64,000 nt of DNA from Clostridia bacterium (GCA_017399265.1 JAFQDL010000009.1:42052-106051), one strand, 5' to 3'. Shown: positions 18,992 through 24,026, counted from the first letter of the stretch. The notes: generated from the sequence alone by a model not told the origin. Made by a program: numbers and translations.

Positions 18992-19176
18992 ACTCCACCT
19001 ACACTAGTTTTTTAGCCAAAGTTCTTATTATAAATTATACCACAAAAAAACTCTAATATCAATTTATAATTTCTAACACACTTAAAAATTAAATAAGAAA
19101 TCAATTTTTCTTATATTTTTTTCAAATTTCGTTGACAATTGTGTAAATTTTACGCATAATACAATTGGAGGTTAAA

Positions 19177-19854
19177 ATGAACGTAAACGATTCCAGATAT
19201 GATAACCAAGGTCTACATGTAGTTTTGGCACTATTTACAGTAGACAAAGGAAGATTTAAAGTCTTATTAATAAAGAGAAAGAATGAACCATTCAAAAACA
19301 AATGGATACTAGTTGGTGGTTGTGCATACAACACCGAAACTGGCGAAGAAGCAATGGCAAGGGAATTAAAAGAAAAAACCACTCTACAGAATATCAATTT
19401 CGAGATGTTCAATGTTTTTACCAATCCAAATCGCTCCCCATTAAAGAGAATGATAGCTATTGGTTACATAGGAGTGAGTGACGCAAGCATAATTCAGAAT
19501 TTTAAACAAACAGAAAAAGCATCTGATGCTGACTGGTTTGAAATTGATCGTATTCCAGAACTGGGTTATGACCATAAAGAAATATTAACTGAGGCTATTG
19601 TAACTCTAAAGAACAAAATTTTTACATCAAATATTATGAAACGATTGTATCCAGGAAATTTTACATTGCCCGAATTACAAACAACATACGAAACAATATT
19701 GGGAATGAAATTAGATCGTAGAAATTTTAGAAAAAAATTACTTAGCTCAAATATTATCGAAGAAACCAATCAAACTATAAAAAATGAAAAAATAAAAACC
19801 ACAAAACTATACAAATTTACAAACAGCGATATTACTTTTAATTTATATAAATAG
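19177..19854 (+). CDS. NrtR-like protein: Nudix hydrolase domain fused to C-terminal winged-helix DNA-binding domain
   Basis: Start moved to ATG 19177 (RBS GGAGG). Nudix box GGCAYNTETGEEAMARELKEKT. C-terminus FTLPELQTTYETILGMKLDRRNFRKKL is typical of NrtR. Promoter TTGACA-17-CATAAT at 19132-19160. Confidence 0.75.
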   Translation: MNVNDSRYDNQGLHVVLALFTVDKGRFKVLLIKRKNEPFKNKWILVGGCAYNTETGEEAMARELKEKTTLQNINFEMFNVFTNPNRSPLKRMIAIGYIGVSDASIIQNFKQTEKASDADWFEIDRIPELGYDHKEILTEAIVTLKNKIFTSNIMKRLYPGNFTLPELQTTYETILGMKLDRRNFRKKLLSSNIIEETNQTIKNEKIKTTKLYKFTNSDITFNLYK

Positions 19855-19922
19855 CGAAAATATTTCGCTTTTTATAATAAATACAAATGTGTAAAAAATA
19901 CACATATATTAAGGAGATATAT

Positions 19923-20477
19923 ATGAAGAAAGCAATTGTTATAAATATTATGGGTGGGCCGGGAGCAGGAAAAAGCACATTGGCGAGCATGTTATTCGCC
20001 AATTTAAAAATGAACGGAGTGTCTTGCGAGTATGTAACAGAATATGCCAAAGATGTCGTATGGGAAAAAAGACTTAATCTGCTTAACGATCAATTATACA
20101 TTCTTAGTAAGCAATATAGAAGAATTAAGAGAGTGAGCAGCGAAGTCGATGTTGTTATTACAGATAGTCCTTTATTGCTAAGCTTGTACTATAATTCCCA
20201 AATTAAAGACATTGAAGATAGAATAACAGAACCTGTATTAAGATCGTTAATATTAGAGCTCAACAACAAGTTCAATAATTATTACTATTTTATAGAAAGG
20301 GCACACAAATACGAAACTAAAGGAAGATATCAAACAGAGGAAGAAAGCAATATAATATCTGCTGAGATAAAAAATATGCTTATCGACCTAAATATAGATT
20401 TTAAATCACTCCCTAGCGGAAAAGAAACAGTAAATAAAATTTTAAAAGAACTAAAAGGAATTATAAATGACAAATAA
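19923..20477 (+). CDS. P-loop NTPase/kinase-like protein (AAA_28/NadR-kinase-like, tentative)
   Basis: Start moved to ATG 19923 (RBS AAGGAGA). Walker A GGPGAGKST and Walker-B-like VVITDSP. Confidence 0.6.
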   Translation: MKKAIVINIMGGPGAGKSTLASMLFANLKMNGVSCEYVTEYAKDVVWEKRLNLLNDQLYILSKQYRRIKRVSSEVDVVITDSPLLLSLYYNSQIKDIEDRITEPVLRSLILELNNKFNNYYYFIERAHKYETKGRYQTEEESNIISAEIKNMLIDLNIDFKSLPSGKETVNKILKELKGIINDK

Positions 20478-20991
20478 GATTTGTTTTGTTGCCCCTAGTG
20501 GATTTGGAAAAAGTACTGCCATCAAAATTTTAAAAGAAAGGTATAACGTAATTAATATCAAAATTGCAAAACCTCTATACGATTTACAAGAATACTTTTA
20601 TAAAATCATAGAAAAAGATATTACCGGAGAACAAGATGGAGAACTGCTACAATTTTTAGGGACTAAAATAAGAAAAGAAGCTCCTTACTACTTGCTTAAC
20701 AAGTTTCAAGAAGTTCTTCAACAACATACAGATAGCAACTGTCTCATCACAAATGATGATTGCAGGCCACCTGATTATGAGACTTTAAAAAATTTAGGAT
20801 TTGTGTTTGTCAAAATAAATGGGTTTCGGAGAGATCGCAATGACCACTCTATCATTGACGCAAATTCCCAACTAGAATGGCAAAACGAAATATATTATGA
20901 TTATTGTGTAGACAACACAGATTCGTTAGCGGAATACAAAAAAAACTTAATTGCATTGGTGGATATAATCTTTAAGAAGGAGAGTTTGTGA
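20467..20991 (+). CDS. P-loop kinase-like protein (dNMP-kinase-like, tentative)
   Basis: Walker A APSGFGKST. Overlaps the upstream gene by 11 nt, consistent with translational coupling. Confidence 0.55.
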   Translation: MTNKICFVAPSGFGKSTAIKILKERYNVINIKIAKPLYDLQEYFYKIIEKDITGEQDGELLQFLGTKIRKEAPYYLLNKFQEVLQQHTDSNCLITNDDCRPPDYETLKNLGFVFVKINGFRRDRNDHSIIDANSQLEWQNEIYYDYCVDNTDSLAEYKKNLIALVDIIFKKESL

Positions 20992-21698
20992 TGCATCACA
21001 ATTTAACATTTAATAGAGTCCTTGGGCTGAAATTTTTACACGATCACTTCCCATATTACTTTTCTCCTAATAGAATCCAATTATACTTTGCCCATTCCAA
21101 AAAAGAACTACTAGAATTAAATATTGTAGATAATTTTGATACACTATTATTAAAACGAAGCGGAAACAATAAAACAGGCTTCTATAGTGATATTAGATGC
21201 AAAGACAATCGGTTTTTTAGAAATATAGAAGAATTAAAATGTGGAATTGGCCAGTTCAAAGATATGTTTGATTTCTGTATAGAATGTCACAAATTTAGAA
21301 ACGGAGAAAATTATTATAGCGACCGCCTTGCAATTGCACAATTTAGCACAGAAAATATATATGATCAATATGACACAATCAGTTTTATACCCTCTTTAAA
21401 ACCAGGAATATCAACAAGAGACAATCTGCCTTATCTAATGATTGATTATCCATACAATTCAGAAAGCCTTCCCCATATCAAGAAGCTAAACAACAAAGCA
21501 ATTAAAGAGAACCATTTTAGCGACGTTGATATCTCGTATCTAGCTAAAACAATTCACAGAATGATAGATAATATTCGTAATTATTTGTTAGATCTAAATA
21601 TCAGAAATTCATTTCAACTAATAATAAGAATTGACTCTTATCTTAACATTCTTCCAATAGATTTTAGAACGCCTGAAGCATGGTCAACACTAAAATAA
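20991..21698 (+). CDS. Hypothetical protein in the nucleotide-metabolism operon
   Basis: ATG overlaps the previous stop (TGATG), with RBS AAGGAGAG. No recognised motif. Confidence 0.55.
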   Translation: MHHNLTFNRVLGLKFLHDHFPYYFSPNRIQLYFAHSKKELLELNIVDNFDTLLLKRSGNNKTGFYSDIRCKDNRFFRNIEELKCGIGQFKDMFDFCIECHKFRNGENYYSDRLAIAQFSTENIYDQYDTISFIPSLKPGISTRDNLPYLMIDYPYNSESLPHIKKLNNKAIKENHFSDVDISYLAKTIHRMIDNIRNYLLDLNIRNSFQLIIRIDSYLNILPIDFRTPEAWSTLK

Positions 21699-21710
21699 AG
21701 GAATAATAGT

Positions 21711-22232
21711 ATGATATTAACCAAACAAGAAATATTAAGGCAAGTATCTAAAAGAAATATTACCATCTCCCCCTTTGATACAAACCTACTCAATCCCAAC
21801 AGCTACAACTATCGTTTGGATTACGAACTATTAGAATTTGATATCCCGTTAGATTGCAAAAAGAAAAGCATGCCCAAAAAAATCACTCTAACCGACGATG
21901 GCTACATCTTACAACCCAATAAGTTATATCTGGCCAACACCTATGAAAGCATTGGCAGTACTAAATTTGTAACACAATTAATCGGCAGAAGTTCTGTCGG
22001 GCGTCTTGGATTGTTTTTGCAAATTACAGCTCCACTAGGTCACGTAGGCACTAATCATAATTGGACTTTAGAATTAAAGGTCGTTCAACCTGTAAAAATT
22101 TATCCATTAATGAAAATAGGACAAGTCACTTTTTGGAAAATTAAGGGCAGAAAAAATAATAATTATATCAACGGCGAGTATAAAAAATATTCCAAAGCAC
22201 AAATTAGCAAATTATATAAGGAGTTATCATGA
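21711..22232 (+). CDS. dCTP deaminase/dUTPase-superfamily protein, paralog 1
   Basis: 173 aa. Dcd-type N-terminus (ILTKQEIL...ITISPF...NPNSYNYRL) and GRSSVGRLGLF. Retains the TLEL Glu but lacks the IDPGW-like segment. Confidence 0.8.
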   Translation: MILTKQEILRQVSKRNITISPFDTNLLNPNSYNYRLDYELLEFDIPLDCKKKSMPKKITLTDDGYILQPNKLYLANTYESIGSTKFVTQLIGRSSVGRLGLFLQITAPLGHVGTNHNWTLELKVVQPVKIYPLMKIGQVTFWKIKGRKNNNYINGEYKKYSKAQISKLYKELS

Positions 22233-22747
22233 TTCTTACCGGAACAGAAATATTTAAACAAGTACAAAAAAACAAAATAACAATTTCACCCTTTTGCAAG
22301 AAGAATGTTAATCCCAATAGTTATAATGTAGAATTGGGAGATTATTTAAAAGTTTATGAAGAAGAAATCCTTGATAGCAAAAAAAAATTAAAAACTATTA
22401 CCATTCCAATACCAGACGAAGGATTGGTACTACAACCAAACAAAATCTATCTAGGATACACTAAAGAAGTCATAGGTAGTAATCACTTTGTCCCAACACT
22501 CACAGGAAGAAGTTCTACCGGAAGATTAGGCTTGTTTGTCCAAATAACTGCAGACCTAGTAGATATAGGCTTCAAAGGCAACCTCACCTTTCAGTTACAC
22601 GCCGTTCAACCCCTGAGAATATACAAGGGAATGAAAATAGGTCAAATTATGTTTTGGAAAACCAAAGGAAAAATAAAATTATATAATGGCAAATATCAAA
22701 ACAGTGTTGGACCAAGAGAAAGCCAAGTCTGGAGAGATTTTAAATAA
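22229..22747 (+). CDS. dCTP deaminase/dUTPase-superfamily protein, paralog 2 (catalytic Glu position is Gln)
   Basis: 172 aa. GRSSTGRLGLF and VDIGFKG (IDPGW.G-like), but TFQL where Dcd has (T/V)LE(F/L). 4-nt overlap with paralog 1. Confidence 0.8.
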   Translation: MILTGTEIFKQVQKNKITISPFCKKNVNPNSYNVELGDYLKVYEEEILDSKKKLKTITIPIPDEGLVLQPNKIYLGYTKEVIGSNHFVPTLTGRSSTGRLGLFVQITADLVDIGFKGNLTFQLHAVQPLRIYKGMKIGQIMFWKTKGKIKLYNGKYQNSVGPRESQVWRDFK

Positions 22748-23646: not shown

Positions 23647-23950
23647 AAGTGCTCTCGAAAGCATTCGGCCGTAGGTGTCGGGCAAGGTTCCCGACTACAC
23701 CTGGACTCTGTCCATGGGTTCGCGACGATGGTAATCGTCTATGTGTGTAACACATCAAGACCTGAGAGTAAAAAAAGTCGCACAAATTGCGACTTGTTTG
23801 GTGGTCTCTCAGGGATTCGGCCGCAGGTGTCGGGCAGGGGTCCCGACTACACCTGGACTCTGTCCACGGGTTCGTGACGATGGCAATCGTCTATGTGTGC
23901 AACACACTAAGACCTGAGAGTAAAAAAAGTCGCACAAATTACGACTTGTT
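23647..23950 (-). repeat. 2 x 152-bp tandem units downstream of tRNA-Lys. Each has a terminator hairpin, about 100 nt of GC-rich multi-hairpin sequence and a copy of tRNA nt C56-CCA.
   Basis: Proximal unit 23799-23950 begins on the plus strand with tggtggtctctcagggattcg, identical to the tRNA 3' end at 23951-23971. Distal unit 23647-23798 is roughly 90% identical, with a decayed tRNA fragment. Confidence 0.95.
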
Positions 23951-24026
23951 TGGTGGTCTCTCAGGGATTCGAACCCTGGACCCACTGATTAAGAGTCAGT
24001 TGCTCTACCAACTGAGCTAAGAGACC
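23951..24026 (-). tRNA. tRNA-Lys (anticodon CUU), CCA encoded
   Basis: Reverse complement GGTCTCTTAGCTCAGTTGGTAGAGCAACTGACTCTTAATCAGTGGGTCCAGGGTTCGAATCCCTGAGAGACCACCA folds as a canonical 76-nt cloverleaf. Confidence 0.92.

Follow-up and report, generated by a model that had tools for sequence, protein, structure and literature searches.

Two overlapping Dcd-family genes and their active-site residues

The stretch of 64,000 nucleotides analysed here (the window) originates from a Clostridia bacterium (GCA_017399265.1, JAFQDL010000009.1:42052-106051) and carries on its plus strand two tandem genes, dcdA and dcdB, of the deoxycytidine triphosphate (dCTP) deaminase (Dcd) family. The first, dcdA (21711..22232), encodes a Dcd-fold subunit of 173 residues that holds the catalytic Glu, and dcdB (22229..22747) encodes a Dcd-fold subunit of 172 residues that holds the active-site Asp and in which Gln replaces the catalytic Glu. 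The genes share an ATGA stop/start overlap (22229..22232, plus strand), indicating translational coupling, and the ATG of dcdB is preceded 7 nt upstream by AGGAG. DcdA and DcdB are 49% identical (BLASTP E 3e-50), and both belong to the Pfam family PF22769 DCD, for which the cut-off is 27 bits and the scores are 107 bits (DcdA) and 131.4 bits (DcdB), with profile positions 1-152 of 153 covered. The NCBIfam dCTP deaminase equivalog TIGR02274, with a curated cut-off of 92.8 bits, is matched above this value by DcdB (109.8 bits) and below it by DcdA (82.8 bits), and PF06559 DCD_N is matched by DcdB alone (25.6 bits, cut-off 21.4). No match to the trimeric deoxyuridine triphosphatase (dUTPase) family PF00692 was obtained for either protein at E up to 0.01, the archaeal Dcd-like dUTPase NF002598 gave 31.8 bits for DcdB against a cut-off of 130 and no match for DcdA, and the two-domain DCD model NF005734 gave 21.6 bits against a cut-off of 283, the present genes being two separate open reading frames (ORFs). 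DcdA and DcdB are the only two DCD matches of the source genome (1.11 Mb, 80.75% complete). Such gene pairs are named 'deoxycytidine deaminase' and 'dcd' by the annotation pipeline PGAP.

The register of the active-site residues was set by alignment to the solved Dcd chains 4xjc and 2qxx. DcdA reads LQITAPLGHVGTNHNWTLEL downstream of GRSSVGRLGLF, and DcdB reads VQITADLVDIGFKGNLTFQL downstream of GRSSTGRLGLF. These readings are identical to those of the original prediction, which was made from the nucleotide sequence, and the alignment confirms its motif registration, with neither protein having both the Asp and the Glu. At the Asp position, conserved across the superfamily (Asp119 in Mycobacterium tuberculosis, Asp128 in Escherichia coli), DcdA has H111 (22041-22043) and DcdB has D112 (22562-22564), and at the position of the catalytic Glu (Glu129 in M. 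tuberculosis, Glu138 in E. coli) DcdA has E121 (22071-22073) and DcdB has Q122 (22592-22594). The position of the sugar-stacking aromatic residue is taken by T114 in DcdA and by F115 in DcdB. DcdB was thus correctly described as keeping the Asp segment with Gln in place of Glu. For DcdA, the retention of Glu also stands, but the IDPGW.G-like segment, which had been called missing, is present without any deletion and has three residues replaced, namely Asp by His, the aromatic residue at +3 by Thr and the Gly at +5 by His. Residue H116 of DcdA corresponds to a His that is invariant among its relatives.

The GRSSxGR motif, with the Ser and Arg equivalent to E. coli Ser111 and Arg115, is present in both window proteins, and both have complete C-terminal lids; in DcdB the motif (R94, S95, S96 and R99) and the lid GKYQ..GP..S are intact. 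As to the residues used for dUTPase activity, DcdB has S95, D112 and Q139, with Leu110 and not Arg two positions before the Asp, and in DcdA the Asp is replaced by His. No single chain of the window combines the hydrolysis set with the Glu of deamination.

Conservation, pairing and phylogeny of the two types

The reciprocal substitutions in DcdA and DcdB are conserved states and do not reflect decay. For each protein, over 120 relatives share at least 60% identity with it; among the matches listed, WTLE was found in 120 of 120 DcdA relatives, and Gln occupied the Glu position in all 118 DcdB relatives that yielded a motif out of 120 listed. In 75 gene pairs aligned in register, the Glu position is Glu in every DcdA and Gln (70) or Met (5) in DcdB, and the Asp position is His (46), Asn (26) or Gln (3) in DcdA and Asp in every DcdB. 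The aromatic position holds Ala, Thr, Cys, Ser, Pro or Gln in DcdA, never an aromatic residue, and Ser (35), Phe (29), Ala (10) or Tyr (1) in DcdB. His116 of DcdA and S95, S96 and R99 of DcdB are present in all 75. The same is true of the DcdB residues S95, D112 and Q139, with Leu and not Arg two before the Asp, and of the DcdB hairpin residues T107, L110, D112, G114 and T120, which are among the most conserved parts of the protein.

The pattern extends to a pooled set of Dcd-fold proteins taken from 162 loci of two profile scans (279 frames, 251 distinct proteins). These fall into 106 proteins with Glu and without Asp (A-type), 102 with Asp and without Glu (B-type) and 43 with both (single-type), and no other pattern occurs. 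In the A-type, Glu is found in 106/106 and the Asp position is His in 66, Asn in 34 and Gln in 6. In the B-type, Asp is found in 102/102 and the Glu position is taken by Gln (91) or Met (11), never by Glu, which supports the alternative offered in the original prediction that the second paralog does not deaminate. The Ser and Arg of GRSS..R are kept in all 102 B-type proteins. The A-type GRSS..GR motif is canonical in just 70 of 106, with variants that include GKTS, GKTE..GK, GRPA and GDRT..GG; Streptomyces-type loci have the last of these, and Alphaproteobacteria have GKTE..GK and GRPA.

The two scans also gave a strict association of the two genes. The DcdA profile, run on one genome per species, found 302 relatives, and in 78 of the best 80 loci examined an A-type gene is directly followed by a B-type gene, the other two loci ending just past the A-type gene. 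The DcdB profile found 586 relatives, single-gene Dcds included; in 42 of the 80 loci examined a single-type Dcd, with its Asp and its Glu, stands alone, and the 38 that hold a B-type gene all hold an A-type gene as well, adjacent in 37 and with an intervening gene in one (L166). For 76 pairs, the genes overlap in 43 (in 35 of them by the same 4 nt) and lie 0-20 nt apart in 25. The order is reversed, with the pairing kept, in the Streptomyces-type loci and in Ewingella and Erwinia.

According to the labels of the genome records, the pair is carried by Bacillota (Clostridia, Bacilli and cultured Paenibacillus), by Alphaproteobacteria (including Holosporaceae and a Rhizobium plasmid) and Gammaproteobacteria among the Proteobacteria, and by Saccharibacteria and other Patescibacteria, Chlamydiae, Verrucomicrobia, Actinomycetota, Acidobacteriota and a Woesearchaeote. 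Among 399 genomes of the same class that were scored, an A-type match occurs in the source genome only, the others having single genes at no more than 187 bits, and the pair is therefore rare within Clostridia though spread across phyla. In 24 genomes of the same genus, the pair is present in two (G014 and G021) and a single-type Dcd in three. A locus from a metagenome-assembled genome of Candidatus Solibacter (L142, 1958-2611) has a third, very divergent Dcd-like frame that overlaps the end of the B-type gene, right after the A/B pair.

In a tree of 72 sequences, which does not fix the order of the splits among the three types, the A-type and the B-type form clades with support of 99 and 98, respectively. 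The same tree unites both with the single-type Clostridial Dcds in one clade (Shimodaira-Hasegawa-like approximate likelihood-ratio test, 96), apart from the Dcd resembling that of Bacillus halodurans. The hairpin of the single-type Clostridial Dcds is TAGFGDVGFKGTWTLEI, with both Asp and Glu and an aromatic residue two positions before the Asp. In the sections of PMC3360063 that deal with these residues, this combination is given as the signature of bifunctional deaminase-dUTPases (DCD-DUT), and monofunctional Dcds are described as having, two residues before the Asp, an Arg that blocks hydrolysis; in E. coli Dcd, Asp128 is held by Arg126. The genes dcdA and dcdB may thus have been born by duplication of a bifunctional-type Dcd with a hairpin of the TAGFGDVGFKGTWTLEI type.

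Site geometry and a proposed division of the two activities

The Asp and the catalytic Glu, at a distance of ten residues, lie on different strands of a single beta-hairpin within one chain. A complex of two DcdA and one DcdB chains (A2B), the only assembly folded, was predicted with an ipSAE of 0.87 (0.85-0.88 in three runs) against 0.48 for the best control; the partner had a predicted local distance difference test (pLDDT) score of 92, and at least 94% of the contacts agreed between runs. In the calibration of the complex score, which is valid only roughly for the present case, the mark is reached by 116 of 157 solved complexes and by 2 of 215 mismatches. E121 of DcdA contacts G98 of DcdB, Q122 of DcdB contacts G97 and G100 of DcdA, and residues 137-138 of DcdA are in the interface. 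In this model each site is made up of the base- and sugar-binding hairpin of one chain, with its Asp and Glu positions, and of the GRSS..R and Gln of the neighbour. Since Asp and Glu belong to the same hairpin, no arrangement of subunits can join the Asp of DcdB with the Glu of DcdA in one site.

The strict pairing, the frequent gene overlaps and the score of the A2B model above its controls make an obligate hetero-oligomer, as proposed in the original prediction, the most likely form of the products. We propose that dcdA and dcdB encode the two different subunits of a single heteromeric enzyme with the trimeric dCTP-deaminase/dUTPase fold, with the two activities split between two kinds of site, and put the probability of this at about one half. 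The sites at the DcdA hairpin, which keep the Glu and have lost the Asp, would deaminate a cytosine nucleoside triphosphate and be unable to hydrolyse it. Those at the DcdB hairpin, having Gln or Met for Glu, would not deaminate; an E138Q substitution, studied by Johansson and co-workers in 2005, reportedly inactivates E. coli Dcd. As described in the relevant passages of PMC3360063 (citing Helt 2008 and Johansson 2005), dUTPase activity requires Ser102, Asp119 and Gln148 in M. tuberculosis numbering, and the catalytic water is coordinated by Asp119. With S95, D112 and Q139 in place and no blocking Arg, the DcdB-hairpin sites would most likely hydrolyse a uracil nucleotide to the monophosphate, nucleotide binding being their probable minimum role. 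A single particle would in this way house both activities of a DCD-DUT, each at its own kind of site.

Three parts of the pair never vary, namely the DcdA hairpin, the Ser/Arg motif of DcdB and the DcdB hairpin, and the Ser/Arg motif of DcdA decays in several lineages. From this conservation pattern we infer that a ring of one DcdA and two DcdB chains (A1B2) is the best fit, because it needs exactly the three invariant parts. Such a ring would have a deaminase site of A-hairpin and B-motif, a second site of B-hairpin and B-motif, and a dispensable site of B-hairpin and A-motif.

Dcd and dUTPase enzymes are homotrimers in the textbook picture, and the most similar known systems include the DCD-DUT of Methanocaldococcus jannaschii (1ogh) and M. 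tuberculosis (2qlp/2qxx) and the B. halodurans Dcd (4xjc), whose fold and family the pair shares (matches to these chains at E 2e-20 to 1e-16). The GRSS..R, hairpin and KIGQ motifs are shared with these, and the pair jointly holds all residues for deamination and hydrolysis. However, the known enzymes are one-gene homotrimers or homohexamers with Asp and Glu in every site, whereas the present system has two genes, no hairpin with both residues, and a DcdA without the sugar-stacking aromatic. Compared with the monofunctional Dcds (E. coli Dcd 1xs1; TIGR02274), DcdA keeps the Glu, Ser and Arg used in deamination but has no Asp and falls below the TIGR02274 cut-off, and DcdB has no Glu.

The fused two-domain DCDs (PF06559 DCD_N plus DCD; NF005734) are similar in having the Ser/Arg motif in one unit and a canonical Glu hairpin in the other. 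In Alphaproteobacterial members (L204:1321-2580 and L206:1351-2583) the N-domain has KSSTGR, and the C-domain has FDPGF...LEV and has lost RSS. Judged by these motifs, they are probably a fused counterpart of the two-gene arrangement, with the difference that they are one polypeptide of about 370 residues whose C-domain has both Asp and Glu. We know of no biochemical study of this fused family. A parallel is also found in the monomeric herpesvirus dUTPase, where each of the duplicated copies has lost motifs that the other keeps, leaving one composite site; the viral enzyme differs in being a fused, monomeric dUTPase that is not known to deaminate. Full-text searches of a literature library found no publication that describes a Dcd as heteromeric or in tandem. 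If the proposed division is correct, the pair would offer a clear-cut natural example of subfunctionalisation within one oligomer, where deaminase and diphosphatase chemistry are divided between the sites of a two-gene enzyme; both genes are at present annotated as ordinary 'dCTP deaminase'.

Several observations weigh against the proposed heteromer and its division of activities. A separate dUTPase (PF00692) is encoded in both pair-bearing genomes of the same genus and in at least four of five distant pair-bearing genomes, so that a second diphosphatase is not obviously needed, and two of the five distant carriers encode an ordinary Dcd as a third one. The sugar-stacking aromatic is missing in all A-type proteins and in 67 of the 102 B-type proteins, which fits poorly with an enzyme specific for the deoxyribose of dCTP or deoxyuridine triphosphate (dUTP). 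The GRSS of the window DcdA is intact and thus compatible with homotrimers in this organism, and the A2B score may merely reflect the likeness of the chains to solved Dcd homotrimers.

It is possible, as the main alternative, that DcdB is a pseudoenzyme which lends its Ser, Arg and Gln to the DcdA hairpin, giving a single kind of working site, a deaminase, with the pocket at the hairpin of DcdB serving to bind a regulatory nucleotide (for instance deoxythymidine triphosphate) or having a purely structural role. The fused two-domain DCDs and the monomeric herpesvirus dUTPase would function with such a layout. The invariance of the Ser and Arg of DcdB next to the decay of those of DcdA, the similar splitting of motifs between the domains of the fused PF06559 proteins, the DcdB score above the DCD_N cut-off, and the presence of a separate Dut in most pair-bearing genomes are all in agreement with this. 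Against it stand the five DcdB hairpin residues that are unchanged in 75 of 75 sequences and the retention by DcdB of the full residue set named for hydrolysis, as a pocket with only a structural role is expected to drift. That DcdA and DcdB form separate homotrimers which act in sequence, deaminase and then diphosphatase, and are merely co-expressed, appears improbable. Both window proteins do have complete GRSS..R motifs and lids, and coupling is common between adjacent genes of a pathway whose products do not bind each other. However, the loss of the DcdA phosphate-binding motif in several lineages would leave a DcdA homotrimer without a complete site there, the pairing is without exception in both scans, and the A2B model passes its controls. 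Losses that complement each other within one active site, an idea implied in the original prediction and suggested by the seemingly reciprocal residue pattern and the interfacial sites of this fold, with a mixed oligomer rebuilding in trans the canonical Asp and Glu site, are very improbable given that both residues sit on one chain's hairpin and that the neighbour gives GRSS..R and Gln, not a hairpin.

A role of DcdB as a stand-in for a missing Dut was considered and rejected, as a Dut is found in 22 of the 24 genomes of the genus, including both with the pair, as well as in the distant carriers mentioned above. In the source genome no PF00692 match was found, but this genome is incomplete. 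In one of the same-genus carriers the best dUTPase match (G014:C5:21457-21855) has an in-frame TAA, and the same genome contains a further, weaker Dut-like match at another position. The pair was likewise rejected as the sole route to deoxyuridine monophosphate, the source genome having also a cytidine deaminase, a deaminase resembling ComEB (91 bits, which is below cut-off) and a divergent ThyX-like ORF. The latter, a frame of 390 residues on the minus strand (L020:835-2007; contig C1, 23339-23785), has a weak ThyX match of 37-41 bits against the TIGR02170 cut-off of 87.9, and is the sole thymidylate synthase-like match in the source genome as far as it is complete, with no ThyA found.

Operon context and possible substrate

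In the window operon, all on the plus strand, the pair is preceded by genes for an NrtR-like regulator, an AAA_28 kinase-like protein, a deoxynucleoside monophosphate (dNMP) kinase-like protein and a protein of 236 residues. The regulator at the operon head (19165..19854) combines a Nudix and a winged-helix domain (PF21906, PF00293), and homologues head 22 of 80 related loci. The P-loop AAA_28 kinase-like protein K1 (19887..20477) matches PF13521 (E 3.7e-12) and phrog_2107 'thymidylate kinase' (E 2.4e-22). The second P-loop protein, K2 (20467..20991), resembles (deoxy)nucleoside monophosphate kinases (PHROG phrog_139, E 2.5e-13); it is conserved with the pair more often than any other neighbour, homologues being encoded upstream in 33 of 80 loci, and a member from Verrucomicrobia matches PF21448 DNMK.

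The 236-residue protein (20988..21698) is encoded directly upstream of dcdA and is lineage-restricted, with only six relatives among 1.84 billion representatives and with no match in Pfam, NCBIfam, PHROG or PADLOC. Its predicted fold (pLDDT 85.7) is ATP-grasp-like, Foldseek giving tubulin-tyrosine ligase, carbamoyl-phosphate synthetase and D-Ala-D-Ala ligase at E of about 1e-5 and template-modelling scores of 0.4-0.5; a search of the ESM Atlas, with a best score of 0.84, gave no reliable lead. The protein occupies the slot that is held in related cassettes by a radical S-adenosylmethionine (radical-SAM) protein. The idea that it is a decayed radical-SAM enzyme was rejected (hhalign probability 0.8%, BLASTP E 0.008), and no copy of the radical-SAM protein was found elsewhere in the incomplete source genome. 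A reading of the locus as a defence system, for instance of the anti-phage dCTP deaminase kind, was also rejected, since PADLOC gives no match for DcdA, DcdB, K2 or the 236-residue protein.

The layout of the window is common to 14 loci, and 14 others have a radical-SAM protein of about 400 residues in the slot. In the latter cassettes the radical-SAM gene has a dNMP-kinase-like gene on one side and the dcdA/dcdB pair on the other, and a gene for a CobC-like histidine phosphatase comes after the pair in most cases. The resemblance of the radical-SAM protein to MoaA or viperin is weak (PADLOC pVip 37-42 bits, far under the NCBIfam cut-offs), and its members (L086:4787-6004; also L079, L091, L093 and others) have a conserved C-terminal consensus 'HLNLVHAPD'. 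At other loci the pair is found with an S66 peptidase, a protein resembling the alanyl-tRNA synthetase core and an S-adenosylmethionine-dependent methyltransferase, or with an amidohydrolase and a DNMK-type kinase. Alphaproteobacterial pairs lie beside lnt and have no obvious pathway partner. On a plasmid of Streptomyces sp. NBC_00239 (L210; NZ_CP108096.1, 150018-162858) an A/B pair lies inside an apparent nucleoside natural-product cluster, with genes for an Erm-like rRNA methyltransferase, a phosphodiesterase, a TauD/TfdA dioxygenase, a PIG-L deacetylase, a WbqC-family protein, glycosyltransferases, an aminoacyl-tRNA synthetase-related protein, a HIT protein and two radical-SAM proteins.

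Judged by its gene neighbourhoods, the pair appears to behave as a portable module of specialised nucleotide chemistry. Its substrate may not be plain dCTP, as suggested by the separate Dut, by the third Dcd in two of the five distant carriers and by the loss of the sugar-stacking aromatic, and a different substrate is also suggested by the kinases and the ATP-grasp-like protein in the window and by the radical-SAM and other cassettes elsewhere. One may tentatively speculate that DcdA and DcdB are the conserved two-subunit core of a cassette family for the synthesis or processing of a non-canonical cytidine nucleotide, and not a housekeeping dCTP deaminase. Candidate substrates would be a ribonucleotide, or a nucleotide modified by the ATP-grasp-like protein or, in relatives, by the viperin/MoaA-like radical-SAM protein. 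The remodelled sugar pocket of DcdA, with Asp replaced by His, Asn or Gln, the aromatic by a small residue and a new invariant His, could admit such a substrate, which the complex would deaminate and trim to the monophosphate, and the phosphatases of some cassettes could then release a nucleoside analogue. The pair may mark pathways of modified pyrimidine nucleosides that are so far uncharacterised, with nucleotide kinase, radical-SAM, ATP-grasp-like, aminoacyl-tRNA synthetase-like, methyltransferase and phosphatase genes as partners.

Just downstream of the window operon lies a GC-rich segment (23741-24026) that carries a tRNA-Lys(CTT) gene on the minus strand (23951-24026).

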